From the NCBI GenBank assembly GCA_964521215.1, contig CAZFRD010000002.1, positions 10,798 through 74,797 of the forward strand: a stretch of DNA of 64,000 bases, written 5' to 3'. The position numbers and the translations under genes were made by a program. Below are positions 19,637 through 54,160 of this stretch, piece after piece. The notes below the pieces were generated by a model, which worked only from the letters and a program-made list of their open reading frames with translations, was not told the DNA's origin and did no database searches. The number at the start of each line of letters is the position of its first letter. Position 1 is the stretch's first letter. The stretch is from an uncultured Pseudomonadales bacterium. Lineage in GTDB: Bacteria > Patescibacteriota > Microgenomatia > UBA1400 > PJMF01.

Positions 19637-20029
19637 TTATTGTAGACTAGCTAATGAAGTTGCTAAAGTATTCAACTTTTTATCAAAGGTAACCAACTTA
19701 GCGTTTCTTCCCAAACTAGTCTTCGCTAAGAGGTAGGAGTCAACAACTGAAATTGGTTTTGCTTCAAATATTGCCAACGTTTCTCTAAGTAGCGGTCGAT
19801 CACAACTAATTGACTCCAAATCAATTAGTAATGCTAACGCTTCCACAAGTTTTTTCTTTTCCATTTGATAGTTGCTGATTAGCACAAAAGCAATTTCGAC
19901 AAATATCACGTCAGTCAATTCCAAACTGCCCGCAACTGATTGACCCAACAAACTCCCAGCTTGACTCGCCAACTTGGGTTCGTCATTGGTGAGAAATCTC
20001 ACTATGATATTAGTATCAATTAAGTGCAT
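19637..20029 (-). CDS. vapC: PIN-domain toxin VapC (pair 1)
   Basis: 130 aa with N-terminus MHLIDTNIIVRFL (the PIN Asp), located immediately downstream of an AbrB-type antitoxin gene. Confidence 0.8.
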   Translation of the reverse strand: MHLIDTNIIVRFLTNDEPKLASQAGSLLGQSVAGSLELTDVIFVEIAFVLISNYQMEKKKLVEALALLIDLESISCDRPLLRETLAIFEAKPISVVDSYLLAKTSLGRNAKLVTFDKKLNTLATSLASLQ

Positions 20030-20046
20030 GCTGCAATCTGGACGAA

Positions 20047-20283
20047 CTAACTCTGTTTTTTATACCAATTTAATATTTGATTATCCCAATCTTGATCAGC
20101 TGATTTTTGTTTTGTTTTAATGCTTCCCTTCAAGTTTATAAATGTTTTTTTTGCAACAACTCGAACTTGATCTCCGACAAATGAAAAGACTACCTTATCC
20201 CCCTTTTCTAAGCCAAGGTAACGACGAATATCGAGAGGAATAGTAGCTTGACCTTTACTAGTGATAGAAGATGAATAAAACAT
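20047..20283 (-). CDS. vapB: AbrB/SpoVT-type antitoxin VapB (pair 1)
   Basis: 78 aa with the SpoVT/AbrB swapped-hairpin motif KGQATIPLDIRRYLGLEKGDKVVF. Confidence 0.75.
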   Translation of the reverse strand: MFYSSSITSKGQATIPLDIRRYLGLEKGDKVVFSFVGDQVRVVAKKTFINLKGSIKTKQKSADQDWDNQILNWYKKQS

Positions 20284-20304
20284 ATTGGAATAATGATATA
20301 CCTA

Positions 20305-20353
20305 AGTAATACCTAATGTCAACAAGTAATGATTTGTATATATAGGTATTACT
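20305..20353 (-). promoter_or_regulatory. Perfect 10-bp inverted repeat (AGTAATACCT / AGGTATTACT) bracketing a TTGACA -35 hexamer upstream of vapB; putative autoregulatory operator
   Basis: The repeat arms are at about 20305-20314 and 20344-20353. A minus-strand TTGACA lies at 20322-20317, and the vapB ATG at 20283 is about 10 nt beyond an AT-rich -10-like element. Confidence 0.35.
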
Positions 20354-21563
20354 CTCTCAGTCGGTAAGTGACACCCTTGGTCACACCTTCTTTTTCGATC
20401 ACCCCTTTTTCGATTAGGTCTTTTAAATCGCGCAAAATAGTATCGACTGAAACATTGGGTAAGGTATTTTGCGCATCGTAGGATGAAATTTGATCCTGTT
20501 GCTGAAAAAGCTCGAGCAAAATAATTTGCCGCTCGGACAACGCCACTTGTTTACCCAGTTGTTTTTTCATCCGCAAATCTTTGGACAGTCGCTCAACTTG
20601 GCGTTGAATTTTGTCAATTTCTAGAGCGACACCGTAACAAAAATACTCTAACCAGTAGGTTAGATCCTGTTTGCCAGTTTGCTGAACGGAAAGTAAGGCA
20701 TTGTAATAGGCTTCCACATCAGTATCAAAATATTGCTCGAGTGAAAAAAAACGTTTGAAGTCATAACCTAGCGAGTAAAGTAGTAGCGTGGCCATGGCGC
20801 GCGCCGTCCTGCCATTACCCTCAATAAAAGGATGGATATACACGATTTGGTAATGAGTGATGGCGGCGCGCAAAACTGCATGTACCTGTTGTGCGGCTTG
20901 GCTCTTGCCCCACACAAAGAAATCATCAATCAGATAGGGCACTTCTACTGCCACTGGTGGACGAAAGATGACCCCACCACTTGTGGCACTTTGAACAATC
21001 ACTTGTTTTTTCCGAAATTGCCCCACTCCTTCGTTGTCTATTAAACCCTGCACTGTCAACCGATGGAGGGTGTTCAGAGTGTCAAGCGAAAAAACTTGAG
21101 TGGTACTTACTTGGGTTTGTCTGTCAGTCCAAGTTAACACATTGCGATAATTAATGACTTCTTGGACATCTCGTTCTCTCGCAGTAATACCAGTTTGGCG
21201 TAGTGCTTCTTTACTATCATTAACAAACTGGAGTTTGAGTAATTGATCCGCCTGCTCTTCCGTTAGTTCATTGCCTTCAATTTTTGTACCGTAATGAACC
21301 GTCCGGTTGAGTGCTTCACTGCGAAAACGAGCTTCCCAGGCTGGGATTAGAGGCGAGTGGTCAATAATAGCTTTGGCAGCCTCAATTCTAGTGATATAGG
21401 TCAACAAGTTGTTGGTAATAGAAAAAACTGGATCGAACACGATGTAAGTATACTGCAATTCATGCAATTTTTGCAGGGAATTTTTGACTTTTTGCTTGCA
21501 AAAGTCGCCAAAATGATTTGGGGACTTCCGCCACCAGATCGCCCGCAGAAAAATTGGGTCCAA
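20349..21563 (-). CDS. Fic/DOC family protein (AMPylase-type) with C-terminal winged-helix
   Basis: Canonical Fic motif HPFIEGNGRTARA. An N-terminal Fic_N-like helix is present (YGTKIEGNELT). The track ORF overlaps the upstream YjeF gene by ~100 nt, so the true start is probably downstream and non-ATG. Confidence 0.8.
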   Translation of the reverse strand: MDPIFLRAIWWRKSPNHFGDFCKQKVKNSLQKLHELQYTYIVFDPVFSITNNLLTYITRIEAAKAIIDHSPLIPAWEARFRSEALNRTVHYGTKIEGNELTEEQADQLLKLQFVNDSKEALRQTGITARERDVQEVINYRNVLTWTDRQTQVSTTQVFSLDTLNTLHRLTVQGLIDNEGVGQFRKKQVIVQSATSGGVIFRPPVAVEVPYLIDDFFVWGKSQAAQQVHAVLRAAITHYQIVYIHPFIEGNGRTARAMATLLLYSLGYDFKRFFSLEQYFDTDVEAYYNALLSVQQTGKQDLTYWLEYFCYGVALEIDKIQRQVERLSKDLRMKKQLGKQVALSERQIILLELFQQQDQISSYDAQNTLPNVSVDTILRDLKDLIEKGVIEKEGVTKGVTYRLRE

Positions 21564-22347
21564 CTGTCTTCCACAATGTATCTGCCGAATGTTTATTCAA
21601 ATAACTGCCAACAATAGCTGCGGTGAGCGCATCATGCTGACAATACAACGCAGCTACTAAACCAGCTAAGACGTCGCCTGTGCCACCCTTGGTCATACCA
21701 GCGTTGCCACCTGGTATTTTGACAGTTGTTGAACCTTGGGTCACTTCGTCGGTGGGACCTTTAGCCAGCAGGGTGACTCCTGTTTCGAGTAGTTTTGACA
21801 TGGCTAAGTTTTTATTTGTTTGATCAATTTTACCCAAGACTAATTCTAGTTCTTTATGGTGTGGCGTAATTATTTGACTGGTAGCAAAATACTGCGGACC
21901 GACCATTTGCAGCGCGCCGCCATCGATCACCCATTTTTTAGTTGGATATTTTGCCAGCAACTGATTGATTATGACTTGGGTTTGTTCTGAACGGTCCATG
22001 CCTGGACCAATTAAGACAGTGTCGTCTTCTTCAAGATAATAGTCAATTTCCGACCAATCAACGACGATGCCAGACCAAAATCCAGCTTTGATTTTTTGCC
22101 GGACCAACTGATTATTTTCATTAGCTGGGCTCGCAAAATGAACCATATCTACAATTTTGCTCGCCACATCCGCCGCCCAAAAAATACTGCTGTGAAATAG
22201 CTCAGAACCACCAATCACCAAAAGTTTGCCATTTTGACCTTTGTGAGATTCAGGCTTCGGTAAATTAATCTGGTCAAGGTATTGTTCAATATCTTGACTT
22301 ACTTGTTTCGACCTAGATTTAATTGTCATTTTTGCATTATCCCACAC
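21460..22347 (-). CDS. nnrD: ADP-dependent NAD(P)H-hydrate dehydratase (YjeF C-terminal / Nnr2 domain)
   Basis: GGTGDVLAGLVAAL motif and the carbohydrate-kinase-like fold pattern of YjeF_C. Confidence 0.8.
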   Translation of the reverse strand: MWDNAKMTIKSRSKQVSQDIEQYLDQINLPKPESHKGQNGKLLVIGGSELFHSSIFWAADVASKIVDMVHFASPANENNQLVRQKIKAGFWSGIVVDWSEIDYYLEEDDTVLIGPGMDRSEQTQVIINQLLAKYPTKKWVIDGGALQMVGPQYFATSQIITPHHKELELVLGKIDQTNKNLAMSKLLETGVTLLAKGPTDEVTQGSTTVKIPGGNAGMTKGGTGDVLAGLVAALYCQHDALTAAIVGSYLNKHSADTLWKTVGPNFSAGDLVAEVPKSFWRLLQAKSQKFPAKIA

Positions 22348-22379
22348 ATCCTATAGTTGACAAAGGAGAATTGATATCA

Positions 22380-22775
22380 TCAGATAGCTTGAATCACCCG
22401 CAATAGTTTCTTATCAAACGTTTTAACTTTTTGCACTGGCCCAGTTTTGTACTGCGCCACAATGTACGAATCAACCAGCGAAATTGTGTGGTTAGCAAAT
22501 ACGTCGAGTGTGGTGCTGAGAAGTGGATAATCCAATACAAACTTGGTTGAGCGGATGAGTAGGCCCAGTATTTTTACTACTTCCACTTTGGGAACTCTAT
22601 AATAACTGAGCAAAACAAAACTGAGTTCCAAAAAAACTGCATCGGGTAGAAAAATACTTCTCTGAGGAGACTGTCGGATGAATCGCTCTGCTTGAGCAAA
22701 CTGTTCAGGCTGATCCTTCAACAAGTACCGGGCCAACACATTGGTGTCAGCGAGAACGAGAGATTTTGGCTGCAT
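22380..22775 (-). CDS. vapC: PIN-domain toxin VapC (pair 2)
   Basis: 131 aa (LVLADTNVLARYLL), paralogous to the VapC at 19637-20029. Confidence 0.8.
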   Translation of the reverse strand: MQPKSLVLADTNVLARYLLKDQPEQFAQAERFIRQSPQRSIFLPDAVFLELSFVLLSYYRVPKVEVVKILGLLIRSTKFVLDYPLLSTTLDVFANHTISLVDSYIVAQYKTGPVQKVKTFDKKLLRVIQAI

Positions 22776-27057: not shown

Positions 27058-28290
27058 ATGCTCAAAAGTAAAAAGTGGGTCATCACTTCCCGACTTGTTT
27101 TTATTCTTTTACTTGCTTTGGTAATCTTTTTCAACCCAAAAACAGCTATGGCTTCGAGCTGCAGCAGTTACGCTCTAACCCACTCAAAATCAAGCAACTT
27201 TCCTTATGATGTTAGTTGCGCATCGATACCAACGAATGCAACTGTTACTGTTAATGCGGGTGGACCAAATAAATTTATCCCCAATGAAACCTACACCCTT
27301 TGGAGAGCAAAAAAGGCACAATCGTCTCAAGGTCAAAGTGTTCAGGTAGCATCTTCTCAAGCAACAAATGAAAATTCCATCACTTTTACACTATCTGATC
27401 CCGTTGCGTTTGAACCAGGGACATGGTTTTTGTCCATTTTTGGCCCTTCACTTGGCGATATTGGTGTAGGTTGCGGACTTTCTGGTTTTAGTCCAACTTA
27501 CAAAGTTGGTTTAAGAAGTTGGTCAGCAGAAATTTTTGCCTCCCAAACACGTGGTGGCAAAATGTGTTACGGTTTTCCCACCGGATGTCTAGAAGCCGGT
27601 ACACCAATCACACTGACTGTTGAAAACGTAAAACTCTGTGGCAAACCCTATGCAAATAAAAGAATTGACTTTTCTTCAGAAGGAAACAATGTGTCGAGAA
27701 ACACCGATACAAACGGTAATTTAACTGGTCAACCAATCGTGTTCACTTTTCAAAATGCCGGAAATTATGGATTTGTGGTTGGCCCATTTGAGTATAAATT
27801 CGACACTATACTTAGATCAAAATTTACTATTCGATCGTCTGGTCAGTGTGATACTTGTCTAACCACCAAACCTAAACCAATTGACCCCAACCAGCCTTAT
27901 CAATACAAAATTTGTGACCAGATTAATGGAGATTTGATGAGTCCAGAAGGAGGCAGTGCAAAAGATGCTTGTTTGCAGTGTGTTGGAGGTAATGAGTTGG
28001 GTCGGGAAGGCATTTGGACTGCTATTGGCTGTATCCCTCGTGATCCAGAGAAAATCGTCAAAAGCTTATTGCGACTGGGTTTGGGTATGGGAGGTGGTTT
28101 CGCCCTCATCATCATTTTGGCCTCGGGTTTTGTCCTAAGTGTTTCCCAGGGTGAACCTAATCGCATTAACGAAGCCAAGCAGTGGCTCACTTCTGCTCTA
28201 GTTGGTATGTTGTTTATTATTTTCTCGGTGACCCTACTTCACTTTATTGGCTATACTATTTTTAGAATACCTGGCTTTGGAGGACCTTAA
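27058..28290 (+). CDS. Pilin-like protein 1: about 330-aa Cys-containing secreted ectodomain fused to a C-terminal VirB2/TrbC-like two-helix pilin module
   Basis: The signal peptide is followed by the C-terminal module GFALIIILASGFVLSVSQGEPNRINEAKQWLTSALVGMLFIIF (helix, charged loop, helix), which is shared with the nine downstream paralogs. Confidence 0.55.
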   Translation: MLKSKKWVITSRLVFILLLALVIFFNPKTAMASSCSSYALTHSKSSNFPYDVSCASIPTNATVTVNAGGPNKFIPNETYTLWRAKKAQSSQGQSVQVASSQATNENSITFTLSDPVAFEPGTWFLSIFGPSLGDIGVGCGLSGFSPTYKVGLRSWSAEIFASQTRGGKMCYGFPTGCLEAGTPITLTVENVKLCGKPYANKRIDFSSEGNNVSRNTDTNGNLTGQPIVFTFQNAGNYGFVVGPFEYKFDTILRSKFTIRSSGQCDTCLTTKPKPIDPNQPYQYKICDQINGDLMSPEGGSAKDACLQCVGGNELGREGIWTAIGCIPRDPEKIVKSLLRLGLGMGGGFALIIILASGFVLSVSQGEPNRINEAKQWLTSALVGMLFIIFSVTLLHFIGYTIFRIPGFGGP

Positions 28291-28976
28291 TGATAATTGT
28301 TGGTAGAATTATTACTGCATTACTCGCCTGTTTCTTCTTATTTGTTGTCATTTCTCCCCAAGCTGCTTTCGCATCCTGTGGCAACATAAAAAACGACCCC
28401 CCAAACTGGGGTACAATTAAGTTTTGTGATTTCAATAACAATAATCAGGGAGAGGATCCAGTTGAGTTTTCTTTTGTAAGTTGTACAACTGGACAAGCCA
28501 ATGATGGACCGCTAGGAACCCGTTGTTGCGCTGACACTCCAGAATGTGGAGTCATCCCTAGCGTCACACCTACTCCTAGACCCCCAACACCCACAGGCGC
28601 TCCCACCCCCACCGGGCACGTGATCGATCCCATCAATCCGCCAACCGATGAATTTTTTGACCTGGTTGACCCGCTACAACATGGCGGGGGAAAAACGATT
28701 CTTGACGACGTAGCCTCACCTTTTGCCACTCAACTTAAAACACCAGGTGGCATCATTAGCCGGTTACTCTTCTTTGCTTTTCCCCTAGCTGGCTTGATCT
28801 TATTTGTCATGCTAGTCTGGGCCGGCTTTGAAATACTGATTGGCGCTCCAACCAAGAAATCAATCGATGCCGGCAAGCAAAGAGCCACCGCTGCCTTAGT
28901 GGGATTTTTTCTCTTATTTGCCAGTTACTGGATTTTCCAGATTATAGAAGTAGTATTCGGTGTTAAAATTTTATAA
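28290..28976 (+). CDS. VirB2/TrbC-like pilin paralog 2 (Cys-rich ectodomain, Pro/Thr linker)
   Basis: A signal peptide, a 6-Cys segment and a PTPRPPTPTGAPTPTG linker precede the module LVWAGFEILIGAPTKKSIDAGKQRATAALVGFFLLF. Confidence 0.55.
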   Translation: MIIVGRIITALLACFFLFVVISPQAAFASCGNIKNDPPNWGTIKFCDFNNNNQGEDPVEFSFVSCTTGQANDGPLGTRCCADTPECGVIPSVTPTPRPPTPTGAPTPTGHVIDPINPPTDEFFDLVDPLQHGGGKTILDDVASPFATQLKTPGGIISRLLFFAFPLAGLILFVMLVWAGFEILIGAPTKKSIDAGKQRATAALVGFFLLFASYWIFQIIEVVFGVKIL

Positions 28977-28982
28977 ACAAGT

Positions 28983-29546
28983 GTGCAAAAAATAATTAAG
29001 ATTATCATCAACTCCAGCTTACTCACCCTACTCTGTATTATTACAAGTTTATATTTTGTCAGTTCTGCTCAAGCTGCTTGTTCTGTCATTAGAGACACTG
29101 GAGCCGTATACTACTGTGACTACAACCATAATTTCCAGCCAGATCTAGGAGAAGGCTCTCATGTAGTTTGTACCAACAGCCCACCCAAATGTTGTAGTAC
29201 GCAAACAGAGTGCAACTTGCTCCCCAGTGGTTGTGCTCCCGGCTCTGGTTTCATTTCTCTGGGGGATTGTCTCAAACTATCTGATGATACAAAGATTAGT
29301 GACACCTACACCACTCCTGCTTTTCTGGTCAATCTGATTGTCCGCAACTTATTTGTAGTAGCCGGTGTAGTATTATTTTTCATGATTCTACTGGCTGGCT
29401 TAAAATTTATCACTGGTGGCAAAAAGGGCCTAGATGAAGCCAAGCAAATCATGACGGCTGCTTTAGTTGGCTTTTTACTGATGTTCTCGGCTTACTGGAT
29501 TGTCCAAATTGTTAAAATAGTGACCAAAACCGATCTGATTATATGA
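28983..29546 (+). CDS. VirB2/TrbC-like pilin paralog 3 (Cys-rich ectodomain)
   Basis: Signal peptide and 8 Cys, then the module LLAGLKFITGGKKGLDEAKQIMTAALVGFLLMF. Confidence 0.55.
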   Translation: MQKIIKIIINSSLLTLLCIITSLYFVSSAQAACSVIRDTGAVYYCDYNHNFQPDLGEGSHVVCTNSPPKCCSTQTECNLLPSGCAPGSGFISLGDCLKLSDDTKISDTYTTPAFLVNLIVRNLFVVAGVVLFFMILLAGLKFITGGKKGLDEAKQIMTAALVGFLLMFSAYWIVQIVKIVTKTDLII

Positions 29547-29968
29547 CCAAATTTTTTATTTCTATTGTTTTCGTCCTCGCACTGGCAATTATTTTCACTA
29601 GTAACGTCGGCGCGGTTGATAATCTTGATGCAACCATCGGTAAAATTGGTACCCCGCCTGGAGTAACAGAACAAATTGCAAATTCCGGTGTTGATCCAGA
29701 TGAAGTTGCCATTTTGTTTTTCCTCAGTTCCCTGATCAAGTTTGCCAATGTCATTGCTGGCATTTGGGTCGCTTTTAATGTAGTATTTGCCGCTTTTGAT
29801 TATTTGGGCGGACAAGGATCAGCCGAGGCTCACAAAAAAGTTCGCGAGAGAATCACCATGAGCGTGGTTGGACTATTATTACTAGTAGTGGCCTACGTGG
29901 CGACAGCCATGATCAGCTTACTTTTATTTGGCGATGCTAGTTATGTGCTCCAACCCAAGTTGGAATAA
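29543..29968 (+). CDS. VirB2/TrbC-like pilin paralog 4 (short, Cys-free)
   Basis: 141 aa. Signal peptide, then FAAFDYLGGQGSAEAHKKVRERITMSVVGLLLLVVAY. Confidence 0.55.
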   Translation: MTKFFISIVFVLALAIIFTSNVGAVDNLDATIGKIGTPPGVTEQIANSGVDPDEVAILFFLSSLIKFANVIAGIWVAFNVVFAAFDYLGGQGSAEAHKKVRERITMSVVGLLLLVVAYVATAMISLLLFGDASYVLQPKLE

Positions 29969-29977
29969 GACCAAACT

Positions 29978-30556
29978 ATGAAATTTACACATAAAATAGC
30001 TCTAGCCTTACTATTTACTTCTATGATTCATATCATAACTTTGGCTCAGATTTTTTTTGTACCAACAGCGCAAGCCTGGGATGGATCAAAATGCAGTTAT
30101 GTAGACCAATGTGTGGAGAATTACCGGTGTAAATGCCTCGGCGCTTGTACTGGAACTATAATCTGGACAAAAGGAGATCCGTGTGGCTCTGCTGTCATCG
30201 GAGGCATCAGACCACCTAACGGCGTAAGTGATTACAACCTCATTGCTATGCTTGGTGGGAGTGGTGACAACATTGGCATCTTTGCCTTTATTTCCGTCGG
30301 TTTGCGCTTATTCACAATTCTTTGTGGGCTGTTTATGTTTTTCAACTTTTTGTGGGCGGGCTATTCACTAATCACCAGAGCGGGAGACAGTAAAGCCTAT
30401 GCCGATATTCGAGAACGCTTACAATACGCCATGATTGGTTTAGTAGTGGTAGTGGCTGCCTATATGCTGGCTGCCATGATTGGACTCATCTTCTTTGGTG
30501 ACGCCACCTTTATTTTAAATCCAGACATCACTCAATACGGAGCAATTGCTCCTTAG
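29978..30556 (+). CDS. VirB2/TrbC-like pilin paralog 5 (Cys-rich ectodomain)
   Basis: Signal peptide and a CxC-rich segment, then LWAGYSLITRAGDSKAYADIRERLQYAMIGLVVVVAAY. Confidence 0.55.
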   Translation: MKFTHKIALALLFTSMIHIITLAQIFFVPTAQAWDGSKCSYVDQCVENYRCKCLGACTGTIIWTKGDPCGSAVIGGIRPPNGVSDYNLIAMLGGSGDNIGIFAFISVGLRLFTILCGLFMFFNFLWAGYSLITRAGDSKAYADIRERLQYAMIGLVVVVAAYMLAAMIGLIFFGDATFILNPDITQYGAIAP

Positions 30557-31037
30557 GTTAATCAAGAAAATTATGTATAATAGTCAAAAGAAAATGAAAA
30601 AAAGATTTGCTTTAAGTTTTGTTGTCGGTTTTCTAGTCTTGTCTTTTTTTATCCCCTCAAGCGTTTTGGCCCAATTTGGCGAAGGCATTGTGCCACCATT
30701 TGCTGAAGATAATAAATACATAAAAAGCATTACCAATGATCCGCTCAATGCCGAAGACGCTTTCACCACTTTTGAATTAATTGTGTCCAACGTGCTTGCC
30801 TTACTCACTGTCTTGGGCTCGCTGGTCTTTATCACCTATTTTATGCTCGGCGCAATCACCTGGATTACTTCGGGCGGTGATACCGCCAAGGTGGGTAAAG
30901 CCAGAGACCAAATGCTTCAAGGAGTGCTTGGTCTGATTGTTTTAACATTAATGTATGCCTTAATTGGCCTAGTGGGGAGTATTGTTGGCATTGATATTCT
31001 CAACCCGGCCAAAGTATTAGAAACTTTAGTACCATGA
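30546..31037 (+). CDS. VirB2/TrbC-like pilin paralog 6
   Basis: 163 aa. Signal peptide, then MLGAITWITSGGDTAKVGKARDQMLQGVLGLIVL. Confidence 0.55.
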   Translation: MLLRLIKKIMYNSQKKMKKRFALSFVVGFLVLSFFIPSSVLAQFGEGIVPPFAEDNKYIKSITNDPLNAEDAFTTFELIVSNVLALLTVLGSLVFITYFMLGAITWITSGGDTAKVGKARDQMLQGVLGLIVLTLMYALIGLVGSIVGIDILNPAKVLETLVP

Positions 31038-31393
31038 AAATCATTGAGTCCGCTCAAGCCGCTATTACTAACCCAGCCGTCGGCAATCTAGGTAACGATG
31101 CGGAAAAAGCTGCTGATGGTTCCTTGTTTCTTTCTCAACTTGTGCGCTATTGGAATAACATTATTAGTGTTGGCGCCCTGCTCTTATTACTTTACTTTAT
31201 TTGGGGCGCCCTAGTCTGGATCACCGCCAGTGGCGACAAAACCAAATTGGAAACGGCTCGCAACCGAATGTTGCAAGCCGCCATCGGCATGCTGATCCTC
31301 GTATCGTCATTTGTTATTATTGGCTTTGCGGGCAATTTGCTCTTTGGCGATGAATTTCAACTGCTTAATTTTAAGTTTTATACACCAGAATAA
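31034..31393 (+). CDS. VirB2/TrbC-like pilin paralog 7 (minimal, 119 aa)
   Basis: Core module IWGALVWITASGDKTKLETARNRMLQAAIGMLILV. Confidence 0.55.
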   Translation: MKIIESAQAAITNPAVGNLGNDAEKAADGSLFLSQLVRYWNNIISVGALLLLLYFIWGALVWITASGDKTKLETARNRMLQAAIGMLILVSSFVIIGFAGNLLFGDEFQLLNFKFYTPE

Positions 31394-31400
31394 CTTAATC

Positions 31401-31889
31401 ATGAAAATTTTTAAATTAAATCTAAGTAAGATGCTACAAATTATACTTTTTGTGTTTCTAATGCTTGTTATCAGCAATCAAGTAAGTTTTGCAGCCACAC
31501 CTCAACCCACAAACAGTAGCATCCAATTTAATATTGCGAAAGAAGCATATGATCAACAACTACCCACGGCCAATAGCTTTAATCCCAGCTCCAATGCTTT
31601 TAAGCAATTATTTGCGAATCTAATTGGCTCGATTTTATCTGTTGTGATTACTATCGGTGTCCTGATGTTGTTGCTCTACCTAGTCTGGGGCGCTTTTTCC
31701 TGGATCACGTCCGGAGGTGATAAAGGTAAAGTCGAGGAAGCCCGCAACCGCATGACCACCGCCGTGATTGGCATTATTGTACTCAGTTCCAGTATTGCCA
31801 TCTTTATGCTCGTGCAACAAATACTAGGTATCTGCGTGCTAGACTTTTGGGGCACAGCCTGCAGGACTCCAGCTGTTCCGGGTCCTTAA
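31401..31889 (+). CDS. VirB2/TrbC-like pilin paralog 8
   Basis: The start was moved to the internal ATG at 31401 (MKIFKLNL..., signal peptide) because the track ORF at 31311 overlaps the previous gene. Module VWGAFSWITSGGDKGKVEEARNRMTTAVIGIIVL. Confidence 0.55.
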   Translation: MKIFKLNLSKMLQIILFVFLMLVISNQVSFAATPQPTNSSIQFNIAKEAYDQQLPTANSFNPSSNAFKQLFANLIGSILSVVITIGVLMLLLYLVWGAFSWITSGGDKGKVEEARNRMTTAVIGIIVLSSSIAIFMLVQQILGICVLDFWGTACRTPAVPGP

Positions 31890-31899
31890 AAAGTCATTA

Positions 31900-31912
31900 T
31901 CTGGTATAATAC
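31900..31912 (+). promoter_or_regulatory. Extended -10 promoter element (TGGTATAAT) upstream of pilin paralog 9
   Basis: ctgGTATAATacc lies about 70 nt upstream of the ATG at 31982. An AAGGGA SD-like element lies 8 nt before the start codon. Confidence 0.4.
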
Positions 31913-31981
31913 CACTAGCATCTTTACAAATAAGTAAATATCGCGTTATAGTAGTAAAAGTACTTAACCAAAGGGATATAT

Positions 31982-32389
31982 ATGAAAAACACCTTGACCA
32001 AGATTGTTGCCGGCGCTGGCTCAGCGGGCACCGCTTTATTTTTGATGGCTTCCAATGCTATGGCTGCCGTATCAATTGGCACCGTTAACACTCCAGAAGG
32101 TGGCTATGCTTCAAACCTTGGTGGCGTTATTAATAGCTTGCTCACCATCGTTATGGCATTAGCTGCTCTAGCTGTGTTTATTTATCTCATCTGGGGTGCT
32201 TTTGAATGGATTACTTCCGGAGGTGATAAAGGTAAAACCGAATCAGCTCGCAATAAGATTACGGCAGCTGTAATTGGCTTAATTGTGCTCGCCGCTTCCT
32301 ATGCCATCTTAATGTTGCTCCTGCAGATTTTAGGATTCACTAGTTTAGAGGGTGCTTTTACTCAAATCAAACCTCTTAACTCCAAATAA
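31982..32389 (+). CDS. VirB2/TrbC-like pilin paralog 9
   Basis: 135 aa. Signal peptide, then IWGAFEWITSGGDKGKTESARNKITAAVIGLIVL. Confidence 0.55.
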   Translation: MKNTLTKIVAGAGSAGTALFLMASNAMAAVSIGTVNTPEGGYASNLGGVINSLLTIVMALAALAVFIYLIWGAFEWITSGGDKGKTESARNKITAAVIGLIVLAASYAILMLLLQILGFTSLEGAFTQIKPLNSK

Positions 32390-32412
32390 ATACTATCAAG
32401 ATAGTAATTTTA

Positions 32413-32439
32413 ACAGCCCGGCGGATGCCGGGCTGTTTT
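32413..32439 (+). terminator. Rho-independent terminator after pilin paralog 9
   Basis: A 9-bp GC-rich stem (CAGCCCGGC), GGAT loop and complementary arm (GCCGGGCTG), followed by TTTTG. Confidence 0.7.
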
Positions 32440-32441
32440 GT

Positions 32442-32489
32442 AGTAGTACCAATGTCTGCTTCGACAAGCTCAGCCTGACATTGGTACTA
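32442..32489. repeat. Long hairpin (14-bp perfect stem, 20-nt loop)
   Basis: GTAGTACCAATGTC ... GACATTGGTACTAC, located immediately after the terminator. Confidence 0.6.
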
Positions 32490-32495
32490 CACTAG

Positions 32496-32645
32496 TGTCA
32501 CCCCGAGCCTGTCGAGGGGTGTCATACTGAGCCCGTCGAAGCATGTCACACTGAGCCCGTCGAAGTGTGAGCCCGTCGAAGCATGTCACTCTGAGCCTGA
32601 CGAAGAGTGTCACTCTGAGGGGTGTCACTCTGAGCCTGTCGAAGA
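32496..32645. repeat. Imperfect tandem direct repeats, about 24-nt unit (TGTCACNCTGAGCCYGTCGAAGNN), about 6 copies
   Basis: Visible as gtcaccccgagcctgtcgagggg / tgtcatactgagcccgtcgaagca / tgtcacactgagcccgtcgaagtg / (tgagcccgtcgaagca) / tgtcactctgagcctgacgaagag / (tgtcactctgagggg) / tgtcactctgagcctgtcgaagag. The array sits between pilin paralogs 9 and 10 and runs into the start of paralog 10. Confidence 0.7.
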
Positions 32646-33107
32646 GTGACCCCACCATGTAGTATACTTACCAGTATCATGAATTCGCTCAGGCATCGTT
32701 TCGTCATCCCGCCGTTACTCATCACGTTTTTGATTTTCAGCTTAATTCTTCCCCCTCAGGCCCAAGCCCAAACCGTCGAATGGTCTGGCGTTTGCATGGC
32801 TGGCTCGTCTGGCGGGGTCCCCACTATTCAGGGTCTTGAGTGCTTAATCGCCAATGTCTTTACCGTTATTATTACCCTTATCGGTCTGGGTGGGTTTGTG
32901 ATGTTTATCATCGGTGCATTCTTATGGATGACCGCCGGTTCTAACCCCAAAAACATCGATTCAGCCAAAAAAACTTTCACCTACGCCGTGCTCGGTATGG
33001 TCTTAGCTCTCAGCGCCTTTATTATCATTAACTTGATTGCCGATTTTACCGGCGTGAGTGTAATTAAGACTTTTAGAATTCCAACTTCTTCAACAGACTG
33101 GAATTAA
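32646..33107 (+). CDS. VirB2/TrbC-like pilin paralog 10 (GTG start)
   Basis: Signal peptide ...PPQAQAQ and 2 Cys, then IGAFLWMTAGSNPKNIDSAKKTFTYAVLGMVLAL. Confidence 0.5.
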   Translation: MTPPCSILTSIMNSLRHRFVIPPLLITFLIFSLILPPQAQAQTVEWSGVCMAGSSGGVPTIQGLECLIANVFTVIITLIGLGGFVMFIIGAFLWMTAGSNPKNIDSAKKTFTYAVLGMVLALSAFIIINLIADFTGVSVIKTFRIPTSSTDWN

Positions 33108-33155: not shown

Positions 33156-36100
33156 ATGTCTCGCCTACGCTCGATTAGCTTGGTTATGTTGGTGCTGTTA
33201 AATTTTTTCATTTTTTTTCTTAACCCTCAGTCCGCTAAAGCAGCTGAAAATAAATGTGGCGTCAATGTCGGACCATACTACAATCAAGTTTCTCAAGTTA
33301 AGTCGCTGACAAAAAATGGTGGCTGGATCGTAGTACTTGGATCACTAGGTCAGTGTGCAGATTATAGTTCTGTTTTTGGGCAGGGCTTAAACGTGGTACT
33401 TCGTGCCTATAACGAAGGTAAGCTGTTTGATGAACCTCAGGCAGATGCTTGGGTTGCTACCCTCCATCAACTCGATACCAAGGGACAAAAAGTGTATTTT
33501 ATGCCTTGGAATGAACCAAATCATGACAATGAAGGTGGTAACAGCACTGCCGGTGCAACGGTAAAAAGATATACCGATTACTTAACAGCACAACTTCGAG
33601 CAGCAGGTCTGCTTGGGACTAAAGTAGAAATACTTTCACCCATGGTTGATAAATTAAATCCCTCATTTGGTGGTCAATTTTTTACTAACCCCGGAGGTAT
33701 CTCAGGTTTTTATAATGGATTTATTGGCAGTTCAATCAATGAATACGACCATGCAAATGGAGATACTTCATACAGCAGTGCTTGCACTGCCGCACCACCA
33801 GCAAATAACTGTATGTATGATACCTTGGGCATTCCTCCACCATTCTATGCACTAGAAGCAGGTGTTGCTGGAACTGGGGAACCTCCTTTATACAGAGACA
33901 ATCAAATTGCTCTAATGTTAAACACCTCATGGTCACGCAAATGGCAAACCGATACTAATTTTGAAATGTTTGCAGTATTTTCCTACGATCCACATAGATC
34001 AGGTGATTGGGATATATACACTGCCCCTCAAACCAAAACTTTTTATTCTAATTCTTGCACTGTGGGCTCTGTGCAGAGCAGCACTTCGGTTGATGAAAAT
34101 AAGTTTACAAATTGGTATAACCCAAAGCAGAGTCAGTTAGTTGCTTGCGCCAGTGGTTGCGGTTTTGCTCCCAGTTCTCACCCGGAGCTCTGTAATGCAG
34201 CAGGAAAAAATGAGAACAATTTCGAGGGCTATGATACATCTCTTTACGACGACTACGACACTGTGCAAGATCAATTTTATATTCACCCCATCAAAGGACT
34301 CAATCGAGCTCAAGATGGAAGTCAGGGTGCGTTTGACGCCAATCTCAAAACTATCCGTGACGATTTGATCACTCAGGGATATGAGTCACGTTGCGCCACT
34401 CCGGGTTTCAACATAGAACTAACCCAAGATGGTAAAGACTGGATGGCAGATTACGTGGAACAAAACCCTCCGGGCGCTGTCTTTGGTGGACATGAAAATT
34501 ACATAATTCGTACCAGAGTGGCCGGCGATCCACCGGGAATCGGTGATTACGTTCGTTCCTGGTTGGCAGTGGATTATCGTGAGGTACAAACACCAGTTTT
34601 TCGGGATGTTTCGGACAAGCGCTTTTTGATGACTTCGCTGGAAGAATTTTTTGGCTTCAAAGACACAGTCGTCCAAGAACAATCACCAGCCGAACTCAAC
34701 TCCGCCGCAATCAACTCTCTGCTGACTAACCAACAGCGTTGCGAAGCCTCGGTCAGAATTTTGCTCAGACAAGAAGAAATGTGTAATAAGTTGGCCGACC
34801 CCAATGCTTGTGCTCTCTACTCTCGGCCCGTTCCGCAAACCAATTTCACCATCAAAACCATGTTGGAAGCTTATAAAGCTTTGGTAGCTGCGCCTCCCTC
34901 CACCATCAAACCCAATCCTTTGCCCCCCTACACCGATCCTGCCACCATTAAAGCCATTTGCTCTGAACTAGTTGGGTCAGATTGGAACGAAACAGCTAGA
35001 GAAGGCTTGCTTTACACCCCGCTCACTATTGATCGTGCCTACCGACTAGCTTTCTTAGTGACCACCATCGAGGTGTTCCATGCGACTTATAAAAGTATGT
35101 TTAATCTTTACATCCATCCCAATGAGGGACCAGCAGAAGATGGTCCAAGTAAACCAGACGATGCCGTGTTAGTAAATGCTTTTAAAGTTCCTGATATTCT
35201 CACTACCACGCAGTTGGAAAGTGCTGGCTCGGGTGGAAGTGGCAACACAGCCTGGACGGATTCGAGTAAGCTGACGCGTAACTCGCTGCTAACCAAGAAA
35301 AACCAGGATGTGCTGACAAAGACTGTTAATGCAAAAGTTGCCGAACTAAAAAAAGCAGCCGAACATTATGATACGAACAAGCAAGAGTCTGGAGCAGACG
35401 AAATTTACTGTTTGGAGGGTGTTTCTAATCGAGGCATTGGCCCCCCCGAATGCAAGGATGAATTAGGCAAAGCTGTAATTGACATTATCAATGCTCAAGC
35501 AAGCAATCGCGTTACCACCAAGTATGATAATCAAATCGATGCTGAGTGTCCTGAACTAATCAAGGAGCCAGCCAGTAGTATTCTGGATTTCGGTTCATTC
35601 GGGACGGTTGAGACAATCAAAAACCCACCAGCCGAACTACTTTATACTCAAGAATTTGGTGCCAAACTTTTGCATAATATCTTCGAGGTTCCCGAAAAAA
35701 ATCAGGATCCTGCGGGATTACTTGACAGCTCTCATCAAATAGAGCCCAAGGGCGACAGTCACCCTTCTTTTGCCGAAACCTGGAAACCGGGAGATCCGCG
35801 TGCAGAGACTAATGATATAGCCCCAGGTGAACCAAATAGCGAGTGGGGACTCAAATCGCTGTTCCATGTCACAGATAGAACATATCCCAAATTTCCCTAC
35901 AACGCCTGTTGTGACGTGAGCGAAGTGAAACACTTTTTGGTCTATCCCATGGGCTATGACATGCAAAAAGTTCAGGAGGTTTTGGCTGGTACATTTTTTA
36001 CTACCGAACAAATCGCCAGTTTAACCACAGCAGCAGAAGAGTTTGACCGGATTCAACTAAGTGGGGATCAAATAGATTTCACTGGGGGAACTAGAGAGCA

Positions 36101-36980
36101 CACTTTTGCCGATATCGTGAAAGGTGAACCAATTAGTGGCAATAAACTCAACTGGCCTGATGGTGTTGATTTTATCTCGGTCAATGATCCAGTCAAAGAT
36201 TCGGTATTTGAAATTGATCGTTGTCAAAAAGTCTATGAAACTATTTGTGATGACATCGACCCTATCACTGGAGTGAGAACAAATTGTCATATCGAACACG
36301 TGGGGTGGGAACTACCCTGTGACAGAACTTTTGGTTGGGCTATCAAACAAAAAGGCTCGGCTCTGACAGCCGGATTACTTGGGGGACGATTTGGCTTTTG
36401 GTTACGCGAAATTCAAAAGGGGCTCAATACCAAAGCTGGCACCGCTCGCGAATATCTTGATACCTGCAAAACAGTGGAACAATTCCTCACTGGCCATTGT
36501 GGGCAACCAGTTGACCCCGTCCCCACGCCCGACCCACCCGATCCCAACTGTACAGAACTGAGTTGTACCCCACCCACGCCAGTGCCACCCACAGCTACGC
36601 CAATCCCTCCAATGCCGACTGGTAGTGGAGGTTGCACCGATCCGACTCAAGATGCACTTATTTTTGAAACATATGTAAATGAAAACCGAGAATGGAAAGT
36701 AAAATTAACTTGCCCAAGTTGTACTGGAGGTTGGGGAGATATTGCAACTAATATCACTCTACCAACTGGAGAATCTTGGAATTGGGCGGGAAATTATCTT
36801 CCAGTAGGTGGCTATCTAGAGCTACCATGCGGAGGTGACCCCCCCTGTGTTGGACACGGTAGCAAAGTACCAGATGACTTTCATGGCCAATGGTGTGTTA
36901 GTGCAGTTGTTACCAGCAGACCAGCGGGCAATCAGTGTCAAGGCACCCTTTACTTCTATGCATGCACAACAGTGCCGTAG
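33156..36980 (+). CDS. Large secreted Cys-rich protein (1274 aa) with possible GH-A-clan-like N-terminal domain and C-terminal Pro/Thr-rich region; candidate adhesin or enzyme
   Basis: N-terminal signal peptide (LNPQSAKA|AE). YFMPWNEPNHDNEGG resembles the GH5/GH-A 'NEP' acid/base motif, which is weak evidence. The protein has more than 40 Cys. The linker PVDPVPTPDPPDPNC..PPTPVPPTATPIPPMP lies near the C-terminus. There is no LPXTG motif and no TM segment after the signal peptide. Confidence 0.45.
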   Translation: MSRLRSISLVMLVLLNFFIFFLNPQSAKAAENKCGVNVGPYYNQVSQVKSLTKNGGWIVVLGSLGQCADYSSVFGQGLNVVLRAYNEGKLFDEPQADAWVATLHQLDTKGQKVYFMPWNEPNHDNEGGNSTAGATVKRYTDYLTAQLRAAGLLGTKVEILSPMVDKLNPSFGGQFFTNPGGISGFYNGFIGSSINEYDHANGDTSYSSACTAAPPANNCMYDTLGIPPPFYALEAGVAGTGEPPLYRDNQIALMLNTSWSRKWQTDTNFEMFAVFSYDPHRSGDWDIYTAPQTKTFYSNSCTVGSVQSSTSVDENKFTNWYNPKQSQLVACASGCGFAPSSHPELCNAAGKNENNFEGYDTSLYDDYDTVQDQFYIHPIKGLNRAQDGSQGAFDANLKTIRDDLITQGYESRCATPGFNIELTQDGKDWMADYVEQNPPGAVFGGHENYIIRTRVAGDPPGIGDYVRSWLAVDYREVQTPVFRDVSDKRFLMTSLEEFFGFKDTVVQEQSPAELNSAAINSLLTNQQRCEASVRILLRQEEMCNKLADPNACALYSRPVPQTNFTIKTMLEAYKALVAAPPSTIKPNPLPPYTDPATIKAICSELVGSDWNETAREGLLYTPLTIDRAYRLAFLVTTIEVFHATYKSMFNLYIHPNEGPAEDGPSKPDDAVLVNAFKVPDILTTTQLESAGSGGSGNTAWTDSSKLTRNSLLTKKNQDVLTKTVNAKVAELKKAAEHYDTNKQESGADEIYCLEGVSNRGIGPPECKDELGKAVIDIINAQASNRVTTKYDNQIDAECPELIKEPASSILDFGSFGTVETIKNPPAELLYTQEFGAKLLHNIFEVPEKNQDPAGLLDSSHQIEPKGDSHPSFAETWKPGDPRAETNDIAPGEPNSEWGLKSLFHVTDRTYPKFPYNACCDVSEVKHFLVYPMGYDMQKVQEVLAGTFFTTEQIASLTTAAEEFDRIQLSGDQIDFTGGTREHTFADIVKGEPISGNKLNWPDGVDFISVNDPVKDSVFEIDRCQKVYETICDDIDPITGVRTNCHIEHVGWELPCDRTFGWAIKQKGSALTAGLLGGRFGFWLREIQKGLNTKAGTAREYLDTCKTVEQFLTGHCGQPVDPVPTPDPPDPNCTELSCTPPTPVPPTATPIPPMPTGSGGCTDPTQDALIFETYVNENREWKVKLTCPSCTGGWGDIATNITLPTGESWNWAGNYLPVGGYLELPCGGDPPCVGHGSKVPDDFHGQWCVSAVVTSRPAGNQCQGTLYFYACTTVP

Positions 36981-37874: not shown

Positions 37875-37995
37875 ATCACTCCTTTTTCAAATGAACATTA
37901 ATATGCTAGGGCAGGGAAACAACCTCATCATATCACCATCTCTGACTATCAAACAAGCACAAATTCACTCGATTGCTCATCCGAAGATTAATCTA

Positions 37996-38001
37996 TATAA
38001 T
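37996..38001 (+). promoter_or_regulatory. -10 hexamer TATAAT 10 nt upstream of the ATG at 38012
   Basis: atcTATATAATagacaccgctATG. Confidence 0.4.
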
Positions 38002-38011
38002 AGACACCGCT

Positions 38012-39760
38012 ATGAAATTAACCGCTCAGGTGGTCAAGTTGTGTTTGGTTGTTTTAGTGAGCGGTTTGCTTTTTACTTCTACCCTTGCTTTTGCCGGAGT
38101 AATTAGCGCACAAGATTCCAGTTCCAGTACCCCCAGTGAAGTCGACATCACTGCAGATGAATTAGCCGACTACCGTCTAGCCACAGCCGATTGTTCCACG
38201 CCATCGCTAGAATGTTTGGTCCGTAACGTTTCACGTTTTACTGCTATTGAGTGGGTGCAGGATATTATTGGCAAAGATAATAAGATCTGTATCGAGGAAG
38301 AAGGATGCACGGATCTAAGCAGTAATAATTCCGGCACCAATGTGGCAGATACTGGAGCCATCGGCAGTTTGTCTAACTTAATTACTGCCATGTATACCCA
38401 CCCCGTGGCAGACACCCAGACGTATGTGGCGTACGTGCTCAAATCTGCTCATATTACCGCTCCCGCCTACGCCCAGGGACTTGGGTTCTCTTCGCTTGAT
38501 CCAGTGCTCAATTTATGGACCACCTTTCGCAATATTGCCTACATGTTTTTTGTGCTGATTTTTGTAGTGGTGGGCTTCCTAATTATGTTCCGCCAAAAAG
38601 TCGGCCAGACGGCCATTACTGCCCAACAAGCGATTCCGCAAATCATTATTTCTCTAATTCTGGTTACTTTTTCCTACGCCATTGCTGGTTTGTTGATTGA
38701 TTTGATGTATGTGTTGATGGCACTAATCATTGGTGTTTTCTCTTCATTTTTTAGCGATGATGTTTTTGGCTATAACATTTTTCAGTTGGGAGGCAAGTTG
38801 TTCGAGGGTGCTGCAGATTTTTATCGCAACAAGGATTTTATTTCTGGCTTTTTAACAGGTCTTGATATCAATGGGGCTGCCAACCAAGTAGTCAGTTTAA
38901 TAAGCAGTTTGACGCTGATGATTATTCTAACGATAGCGATGTTGATTGGAATTGTGAGGTTGTTTTTCGAGCTACTAAAGTCATATGCCACTATTGTCAT
39001 CTCCGTAGTAGTAGCACCACTATTGCTGATGATGGGAGCTATTCCTGGTAGAAGCAATGCTTTTGGTTCATGGATCAAAACCCTAGTTGGCCACCTCTCA
39101 CCGTTCCCCGTAATCTTGATGGTGTTGGTGATGTTTTATGCTTTTACAGAAGGCGCAGTTAATGCTAGTAGTGGCGGTTTTATGCCACCATTTTTGCTCA
39201 ATGCCGGTAATGGTATTGGTGAAAGTATTATTGCGCTCATGAGTTTGGCCATTATTTTGGCTCTACCAGATATTGTGATAAAAATCAGAGATGGCATAGC
39301 GCCAAAGGATGCTTTTGGAGAACTGATAACTAACAAGGGCTGGAGTAACTTCAAAGATGGTTGGACGGGCAAGACCCCTTGGGGTAAAATGCCATTGGGA
39401 ATGAGTGGAAGGAATATTTCTAAGTTGGGTGTGGGTGCCACTACGGCTGGGGTAGGCGCAATTGGTGGTGCAGGAATTGGATTTGTTAAAGGAGGGGGAA
39501 CCATGAAAGAACGTCTCGGAAGAGCTGGTCAGTATGCTGGAGCTGGTGCGATTGGTGGCGCCATAGCACCTATCGCAATTCCCAAAGTGCCGAGATTGGT
39601 AAAAGGAATTGTAAAAGAAACTATGGGTAGTGCAGTTAGCTACACCGTTGGAGATGTTGTTGAAGAAAAGTTAGATCAGTTCAAAGCATACAGAGAAGAC
39701 AAAAAAGCTCAAAAGGGTGGAAATCGGAAGAGCGACGCTGCAGGTCTAGACAGAAACTAA
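38012..39760 (+). CDS. VirB6/TrbL-like polytopic membrane protein (T4SS channel component candidate)
   Basis: The start was moved to the ATG at 38012 (MKLTAQVV..., signal peptide). A ~170-aa Cys-containing extracytoplasmic domain is followed by at least 6 TM helices and a Gly-rich charged C-terminal tail. The topology and size are typical of VirB6/TrbL/PrgH-like proteins, but there is no sequence-motif proof. Confidence 0.45.
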   Translation: MKLTAQVVKLCLVVLVSGLLFTSTLAFAGVISAQDSSSSTPSEVDITADELADYRLATADCSTPSLECLVRNVSRFTAIEWVQDIIGKDNKICIEEEGCTDLSSNNSGTNVADTGAIGSLSNLITAMYTHPVADTQTYVAYVLKSAHITAPAYAQGLGFSSLDPVLNLWTTFRNIAYMFFVLIFVVVGFLIMFRQKVGQTAITAQQAIPQIIISLILVTFSYAIAGLLIDLMYVLMALIIGVFSSFFSDDVFGYNIFQLGGKLFEGAADFYRNKDFISGFLTGLDINGAANQVVSLISSLTLMIILTIAMLIGIVRLFFELLKSYATIVISVVVAPLLLMMGAIPGRSNAFGSWIKTLVGHLSPFPVILMVLVMFYAFTEGAVNASSGGFMPPFLLNAGNGIGESIIALMSLAIILALPDIVIKIRDGIAPKDAFGELITNKGWSNFKDGWTGKTPWGKMPLGMSGRNISKLGVGATTAGVGAIGGAGIGFVKGGGTMKERLGRAGQYAGAGAIGGAIAPIAIPKVPRLVKGIVKETMGSAVSYTVGDVVEEKLDQFKAYREDKKAQKGGNRKSDAAGLDRN

Positions 39761-54079: not shown

Positions 54080-54160
54080 GGCTATTTATCAGTGTATTTT
54101 TCCCCTTGCAGAGTGTGGGAAACTTTGTGTATAACTTCCAAGTATATTTGGGGTGGAAAT

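Follow-up and report, generated by a model that had tools for sequence, protein, structure and literature searches.

Arrays of VirB2-like pilin genes are a described feature of the Patescibacteria. Using a set of profiles that included PF18895 and PF04956, Quinonero-Coronel et al. (2025) screened 3,035 genomes of Patescibacteria and recorded arrays of 2 to 11 such genes in 383 assemblies (PMC12102498). As given there, the genes stand in tandem or are separated by one gene, share a mean identity of ∼25% (maximum, 54%), lie near virB4 and dnaA, and are abundant in Microgenomatia; the Patescibacteria type IV secretion system (T4SS) frequently adjoins dnaA and comes without a relaxase (PMC12102498). 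In Southlakia epibionticum, transposon sequencing by Wang et al. (2023) identified the pilin series of the T4SS cluster as essential (PMC10633639; also PMC12857230), and the tables of that study list SEML1_0014 to SEML1_0019 as PF18895 proteins, six of six individually essential (PMC10633639). Furthermore, metatranscriptomes of Patescibacteria place T4SS pilins among the unknown-function genes with the highest expression (PMC10936435). Here, we describe a locus of this kind, ten consecutive plus-strand genes (p1 to p10) at positions 27058 to 33107 of a 64-kb stretch of contig CAZFRD010000002.1, hereafter the window (assembly GCA_964521215.1; titled an uncultured Pseudomonadales bacterium and placed by GTDB in the Patescibacteriota, Microgenomatia). 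The locus is probably, although far from certainly, a pilin gene array of a Patescibacteria T4SS that builds a heteromeric surface fiber or conduit, and comparison with related genomes argues that its ten genes encode non-redundant subunits rather than variants of one another.

The open reading frames (ORFs) of the array are p1 (27058 to 28290; 410 amino acids [aa]), p2 (28290 to 28976; 228 aa), p3 (28983 to 29546; 187 aa), p4 (29543 to 29968; 141 aa), p5 (29978 to 30556; 192 aa), p6 (30546 to 31037; 163 aa), p7 (31034 to 31393; 119 aa), p8 (31311 to 31889; 192 aa), p9 (31982 to 32389; 135 aa), and p10 (32646 to 33107; 153 aa). Judged by orthologues, the mechanically called starts of p6, p8, and p10 are probably too far upstream, and likelier starts lie at 30573 or 30594 (p6), at the ATG at 31401 (p8; ∼162 aa), and at the ATG at 32679 (p10; 142 aa). 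By hydropathy and alignment, all ten proteins end in the same module, a hydrophobic helix, a short polar loop, and a second hydrophobic helix, as the initial annotation of this DNA had proposed; the loop consensus that it quoted, W-I/M-T-S/A-G-G-D-K, describes p6 to p10 and does not extend to p1 to p5. Run against the window translated in six frames, a hidden Markov model (HMM) of the module, built from all ten, picked out the ten ORFs of the array and gave no other match below an E value of 0.09. When each copy was left out in turn, it scored 27 to 86 bits against the profile of the other nine (27 to 65 bits for p1, p2, p3, p4, and p6, with p2 at 57 and p4 at 39.5), compared with at most 12 bits for any of 200 shuffled sequences of matched composition. 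The paralogs are 14 to 48% identical (mean, 23%) when aligned over their C-terminal 100 residues. Neighbors tend to resemble each other most, forming the groups p2/p3, p4/p5, and p6 to p9, and no recent duplicates or silent cassettes were seen among the array paralogs in the pairwise comparison.

Profile searches assigned the module to a known family: for each of the ten proteins, the Pfam family that scores highest is PF18895 (T4SS_pilin). The scores of p5 (28.4 bits), p7 (27.5), p8 (31.4), p9 (33.9), and p10 (34.7) exceed the gathering score of 26.6 bits, and those of p1, p2, p3, p4, and p6 fall below it, at 16 to 23.5 bits (p4 lowest, at 16; p2 at 23.5). The same family was matched by all 78 of the p9 orthologues searched. 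The architecture of PF18895, comprising a signal peptide, two hydrophobic helices, and a short polar loop, is present throughout, except for the signal peptide of p7 in this genome. At the sequence level, the ten array genes are real and mutually homologous. The evidence places them firmly in PF18895 but does not establish them as members of TrbC/VirB2 proper, and the word "pilin" is used here as a functional inference. Thus, the earlier description of the genes as VirB2/TrbC-like pilins stands as far as the PF18895 family, the topology, and the T4SS neighborhood are concerned, and the outcome named as its refutation, no match to any such profile, did not occur; kinship with canonical VirB2 could not be demonstrated with the profiles considered below.

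The locus has the hallmarks of the published Patescibacteria arrays (PMC12102498; S. epibionticum ML1, PMC10633639): PF18895 proteins, encoded by tandem, same-strand paralogs that diverge to a mean identity of ∼23 to 25%, in the vicinity of PrgI/VirB3-like and TrsD-like genes, virB4, and dnaA. Here, the array lies 5 to 19 kb upstream of a VirB6-like gene (for a polytopic membrane protein), a PrgI/VirB3-like gene, a VirB4 gene, and dnaA, which directly follows the VirB4 gene. The novelty that had been attached to the array is therefore contradicted by this literature (383 assemblies, PMC12102498; the essential six-gene array, PMC10633639 and PMC12857230). Likewise, the remark that such an expansion is unusual next to a monoderm-type T4SS is valid for Firmicutes and Actinobacteria and fails for Patescibacteria, in which arrays of this kind are common (PMC12102498). 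What differs is the size of the array, since ten genes place it at the upper end of the published 2 to 11, and the size of its first members. The S. epibionticum pilin genes measure 312 to 417 nucleotides (nt) in the tables available, and PF18895 ends at about residue 180 of the longest protein among the six (PMC10633639), whereas the first members here carry large fused ectodomains, including ∼300 aa of tandem immunoglobulin (Ig)-like folds in p1. The kind of locus is thus already known; ectodomain fusions, strict positional orthology, and a separately transcribed p9 go unmentioned in the available parts of the published array accounts. The additions are modest and do not amount to a new system: the positional orthology, the separate p9, and the fusion of an Ig-like pair to a pilin core at the head of Microgenomatia arrays.

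The relationship among the ten genes was examined by comparison with related genomes, in which the array recurs. The same ten genes, in the same order and of nearly equal lengths, are present in the loci designated L001 (a 1.27-Mb Joint Genome Institute contig), L005, and L013 (a Woesebacteria metagenome-assembled genome [MAG]), flanked in each case by a SpoIID gene and by a ∼1210-aa orthologue of the protein encoded downstream of the array. Against L001 and L005, positional orthologues scored 152 to 371 bits and all other pairs scored 94 bits or less. The two-helix cores are 67 to 94% identical between orthologues, as opposed to the 14 to 48% between paralogs, and p2, p7, p9, and p10 are 66 to 87% identical to their orthologues overall (p2, 69 to 75%). 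The most conserved member is p9, whose core is 87 to 94% identical to those of its orthologues; it has more than 1041 homologues, the listed ones being 52 to 92% identical, and the alignment of its orthologues contains 24 invariant columns, including W76, I77, G80, G81, K83, T86, E87, A89, and R90. The conserved one-to-one order, together with high orthologue and low paralog identity, favors ten non-redundant subunits and argues, from sequence comparison, against the diversification or decoy family suggested in the initial annotation.

Farther afield, p1 belongs to a family of 91 homologues of ∼400 aa. In 84 related loci, the p1-like gene is directly followed by a second pilin gene wherever the contig continues (∼90 to 550 aa, measured as stop-to-stop ORF lengths), and a further 6 to 10 small pilins are either contiguous, giving arrays of 10 to 12, or located 2 to 5 kb downstream; in 51 of the 84, the first pair stands alone within 10 kb. 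Contiguous arrays of 10 to 12 genes were found in nine loci among L013 to L092, with 12 genes in L016, L017, and L063, slightly above the published maximum of 11. Of the 80 related loci drawn from species-representative genomes, almost all come, as do the homologues that carry names, from Woesebacteria, Pacebacteria, Microgenomates, or "Patescibacteria group" MAGs; a few have other labels. Judged by these names, the window most likely derives from a Woesebacteria-like member of the Microgenomatia. Many records, among them L015, L017, L018, and L026 and including isolates HK-STAS-PATE-15 and HK-STAS-PATE-17, are titled "uncultured Pseudomonadales bacterium" despite a Patescibacteria-type pilin locus; these titles look like taxonomic mislabels.

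The paralogs differ most in what precedes the core. If the ectodomain is taken as the approximate mature N-terminal segment ahead of the first core helix, four members carry a Cys-rich ectodomain between the signal peptide and the core: p1 (297 aa, 12 Cys), p2 (123 aa, 6 Cys), p3 (80 aa, 8 Cys), and p5 (67 aa, 6 Cys). The segments of p8 (38 aa), p6 (33 aa), p4 (32 aa), p7 (23 aa), and p9 (17 aa) contain no Cys, in agreement with their earlier designation as minimal. Conversely, p10, previously counted as a fifth Cys-rich member, is essentially minimal too: its segment spans only ∼22 aa and holds one Cys, with a second Cys at the start of the first helix. The ectodomains had also been described as mutually unrelated and joined through Pro/Thr linkers. 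However, those of p2 and p3 are related, because both contain the Cys framework C..CD[FY]N.N..C..CC..EC, and a Pro/Thr linker is clear in p2 only, not in the other ectodomain members. Apart from one Cys in p5 and one in p10, the helical core is Cys-free, and the number of Cys per mature protein is even (12, 6, 8, 2, and 2), the exception being p5, with 6 in the ectodomain and 1 in the core. The position and even counts of the Cys residues fit a topology in which both termini lie outside the cell and disulfide bonds form there.

The largest ectodomain, that of p1, is predicted to fold into two Ig-like beta-sandwiches (residues ∼40 to 260) resembling those of invasin/intimin and the macroglobulin (MG) domains of complement; a conserved, Cys-rich, membrane-proximal module (residues 263 to 329) and the pilin-type core (residues 330 to 400) follow. 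The Ig-like region is only 23 to 37% identical to those of orthologues, compared with 89 to 90% for the core. In the structural model, the predicted Ig-like pair fits an adhesive, displayed domain, in keeping with the earlier proposal that ectodomain members could be adhesins.

Transcription signals set p9 apart. The ORFs from p1 to p8 overlap or are closely spaced, which fits co-transcription better than alternate expression, and the array appears to comprise three transcription units, namely, p1 to p8, p9 alone, and p10 with the genes downstream. Upstream of p9, a promoter-like site on the plus strand, TTTACA-N18-TATAGT (31923 to 31952), is the best match in the region, agreeing at 10 of 12 positions. 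Directly after the p9 stop codon, also on the plus strand, lies an intrinsic-terminator-like hairpin (32412 to 32443) with an 11-bp GC-rich stem followed by UUUUG (minimum free energy, −25.2 kcal/mol; z score, −5.6). Both signals recur around the p9 orthologues in L001, L002, L005, and L013; across relatives, the loops of the hairpin vary, and one C-to-U change in the stem preserves the pair. Because p9 combines its own promoter-like site and terminator hairpin with the highest conservation and the shortest N-terminus, we infer that it is a candidate for the major (bulk) subunit. Its AlphaFold2 model is a helical hairpin (residues 46 to 78 and 83 to 116) with a predicted local distance difference test score of >90.

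Between the p9 terminator and p10, the spacer (32440 to 32653) contains a tandem repeat with periods of 24 and 40 nt. The repeat core, CTGAGCCYGTCGAAG, occurs seven times in the spacer, once inverted (32459 to 32473), and nowhere else in the window, against a chance expectation of 0.08 occurrences. In L001 and L005, the corresponding spacers measure 76 to 102 nt and lack the repeat, so that it looks like a lineage-specific insertion of a repetitive extragenic palindromic (REP)-like element; it also creates a spurious minus-strand ORF (32470 to 32658). A further motif, GTAGTATACT (32655 to 32667), is kept 12 to 14 nt upstream of the probable p10 ATG here, in L001, and in L005, and could be a −10 element, from which p10 and the genes downstream would be transcribed with almost no leader, or else a conserved signal of another kind.

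Among the remaining members, the core of p4 is nearest to that of p5 (79 bits), and the C-terminal tail of p8, GICVLDFWGTAC, contains a Cys pair and is kept in L001 and L005. Both here and in L001, p7 begins with MKIIESAQAAITNP and has no hydrophobic signal peptide; its stop-to-stop frame permits just 13 extra upstream codons, and the L005 orthologue has a normal signal peptide. If p7 indeed lacks a signal peptide, its N-terminal tail of ∼32 residues would need Sec-independent (YidC-type) translocation, or its topology differs.

These features can be assembled into a working scheme for the array. The subunits, possibly except p7, would be exported by Sec, cleaved at an A-x-A site, and placed in the membrane such that the two termini face outward and the short Lys/Arg loop lies in the cytoplasm. 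Machinery resembling VirB4, VirB3, and VirB6 would then extract them, and they would polymerize into a heteromeric surface fiber or conduit. In the stoichiometry suggested here, p9 would form the bulk of the structure, and the other nine would be low-copy, non-redundant, position-specific subunits, like the minor pilins of other filament systems. Outward display of disulfide-stabilized domains would fall to p1, p2, p3, and p5, with the fast-evolving Ig-like pair of p1 as a putative host-contact adhesin. Such a structure would serve an epibiotic lifestyle, through host contact, uptake, or delivery, rather than conjugation. A more specific version is possible, but we regard it as doubtful: an obligate heteromeric T4SS fiber whose adhesins are fused to VirB2-like cores (the Ig-like pair of p1 and the disulfide knots of p2, p3, and p5) and replace a VirB5/PrgB-type adhesin, with p9 as the major subunit, the other nine at fixed positions, and p1 setting host specificity in Microgenomatia.

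Other explanations of the array were weighed against the heteromeric fiber or conduit. That the ten ORFs are unrelated small membrane proteins sharing only hydrophobic stretches deserves practically no credence. The ten proteins and the p9 orthologues do also match unrelated transmembrane (TM) families weakly, but chance or compositional resemblance is refuted by the leave-one-out scores relative to those of the shuffles, by the independent match of all ten to PF18895, and by the orthologous arrays kept in other genomes. A more serious idea is that the paralogs form a repertoire of alternative pilin versions, used for immune or defense evasion, as decoys, or for switching between host strains. 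It has been put forward for VirB2 paralogs in Bartonella and Anaplasma and floated for Patescibacteria (PMC12102498), and it would account for the low identity among paralogs, for N-terminal regions that vary in length and content, for the fast divergence of the p1 ectodomain between genomes, and for gene numbers that vary across lineages (2 to 12 within 10 kb). We nevertheless regard such a repertoire as very unlikely. One-to-one positional orthologues, with conserved order, lengths, and cores, are not what it predicts, and p2, p7, p9, and p10 are conserved over their entire lengths; the spacing of p1 to p8 fits co-transcription, neither recent duplicates nor silent cassettes were seen, and the individual essentiality of all six S. 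epibionticum pilins (PMC10633639) fits redundancy poorly. Variation of the recent-duplication or cassette type, in particular, is contradicted by the contrast between orthologue and paralog identities.

The main rival to the fiber or conduit holds that no filament is formed, the module being a membrane anchor or a fixed T4SS channel subunit and the ectodomain members being tethered adhesins or enzymes. Several results weigh against a pilus-like assembly and so lend this rival weight. PF04956 (TrbC/VirB2) was not matched at an E value of ≤1 by any of the ten, and among the 78 p9 orthologues it was matched below threshold by 44 (best E value, 5.3e-5), no more often than the unrelated membrane families WLS-like_TM (67) and TctB (61). 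When aligned by hhalign with seven annotated VirB2/TrbC proteins gathered from plasmids, a shallow profile, the p9 orthologues reached a probability of 20% (E value, 0.0011) and the ten modules 1.4%. A search of the module profile against all PDB chain sequences retrieved no pilin (best E value, 0.12), giving no significant similarity to solved conjugative pilins, and Foldseek with the predicted hairpin returned nothing below an E value of 1; the hairpin matches archaeal conjugative pilins no better than it does the dimerization and histidine phosphotransfer (DHp) domains of histidine kinases or helical hairpins of designed proteins. A domain of 300 aa may be incompatible with the tight packing of a VirB2-type helix, so that p1 could stay in the membrane. 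No filament or pilus of such proteins is described in the literature consulted, and a 2025 review still calls a filament a possibility (PMC12857230). Finally, the division into major and minor subunits derives only from transcription signals and conservation. We still consider the anchor or channel explanation unlikely, since the loop and helix residues are conserved far beyond the needs of a passive anchor, as seen in the 24 invariant columns of p9 and in the core identity between orthologues, p1 included, and since six of the ten paralogs have almost no ectodomain to anchor. Moreover, throughout the phylum the family is associated with VirB4 loci (PMC12102498), and some Saccharimonadia members reach PF04956 at ∼1e-6 in the authors' table (PMC10633639).

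The fiber or conduit reading also invites comparison with better-known pilins. Canonical VirB2/TrbC proteins (PF04956; the Agrobacterium tumefaciens T-pilus and RP4 TrbC) and F-type TraA share with the array proteins a long signal peptide that is cleaved behind an Ala-rich site, a pair of hydrophobic helices with a short Lys/Arg loop between them, termini expected to lie outside, and a gene near virB3 and virB4. Unlike them, the array shows no significant sequence or profile similarity to VirB2/TrbC, comprises ten paralogs rather than one, carries fused ectodomains, and belongs to a host that is monoderm; the window ORFs scanned included no VirB7, VirB9, or VirB10, and no VirB5 tip protein was detected. 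The archaeal Ced/Ted conjugation-type pilins (PDB 8dfu and 8dft) score the same as unrelated helical hairpins, at 13% identity, and these fold scores, from comparison of sequences and models, provide no evidence of common descent. Another two-helix protein of a monoderm T4SS, the Mbov_0395 family pilin-like conjugal transfer protein of the Mycoplasma integrative and conjugative element (NCBIfam NF045849), is weakly matched by p1, p7, p8, p9, and p10 (E values, 2.6e-7 to 0.028; 14 to 30 bits, below the 40-bit cutoff). The minor pilins and pseudopilins of type IV pili and type II secretion offer a functional analogy only: there, too, divergent paralogs, each its own orthologous group, are encoded together, and one abundant subunit is accompanied by several low-copy ones, some with extra adhesion domains, but the fold and the machinery are different. 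Pilins of type IV pili or type II secretion systems were rejected as an identity for the array proteins, which have no class III signal peptide or G|F/M-x-x-x-E motif, signals that end in A-x-A, and a C-terminal hairpin; sortase-assembled Gram-positive pili were likewise rejected, as LPXTG is absent from all ten translations.

In public data, the module is widespread, with 88,510 representatives of 50%-identity clusters matching at an E value of ≤1e-3 and 19,161 at ≤1e-10. The top-scoring matches, P0214 to P0226, are long proteins with 3 to 17 copies (P0214 has 1775 aa and 17 matched stretches); they represent either genuine multi-pilin concatemers or gene predictions that run across the stop codons of a tandem array.

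The genes around the array were also annotated. A SpoIID-domain protein is encoded upstream, on the minus strand, and farther upstream (19637 to 22775), housekeeping genes are interleaved with genes for two PIN-domain proteins and a Fic/DOC protein, in synteny with L001 and L005. Directly after the array lies a plus-strand gene (33156 to 36980) for a secreted protein of 1274 aa with no Pfam match. Syntenic counterparts occur in L001 (1210 aa), L005 (1214 aa), and L004 (873 aa), and because of this shared position after the array, the protein probably belongs to the same system. Its C-terminus is rich in Pro, Thr, and Cys, and an NEPN motif in its N-terminal part is reminiscent of clan-A glycoside hydrolases; the protein may be a host-wall-acting component of the system of the array. 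The next components are all encoded on the plus strand. The polytopic membrane protein (37973 to 39760; 595 aa), with ∼6 to 7 TM segments predicted by hydropathy and no Pfam match, has the same position in L004 and is, by inference, a candidate VirB6/PrgH-like channel subunit. A 1376-aa protein (44916 to 49046) with a C-terminal M23 peptidase domain (PF01551; E value, 5e-15) is a candidate cell wall hydrolase that could play a VirB1-like role. The PrgI-family (VirB3-like) gene (50053 to 51255; PF12666, 29.5 bits, above the gathering score) is separated by a gene for a 290-aa protein from that of the VirB4-type ATPase (52181 to 54079; PF19044, E value, 4e-25; PF12846, E value, 1e-14), whose end precedes dnaA (54092 to 55627) by 13 nt; dnaN follows. 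Pfam searches of the large neighboring proteins at lenient thresholds gave nothing useful, and no relaxase or coupling protein was found among the window ORFs scanned.

Among the few machineries demonstrated to be indispensable to Patescibacteria living as epibionts is the T4SS with its pilin series. This locus adds no new kind of system to the described ones. Rather, it indicates that the ten paralogs behave as distinct, conserved parts and not as interchangeable variants. Two of them, p9 and p1, are concrete targets for proteomics, antibody labeling, cryo-electron tomography, and multimer modeling. Through its combination of a conserved pilin-type core with a fast-evolving Ig-like pair, p1 is, furthermore, a candidate determinant of host specificity in Microgenomatia.

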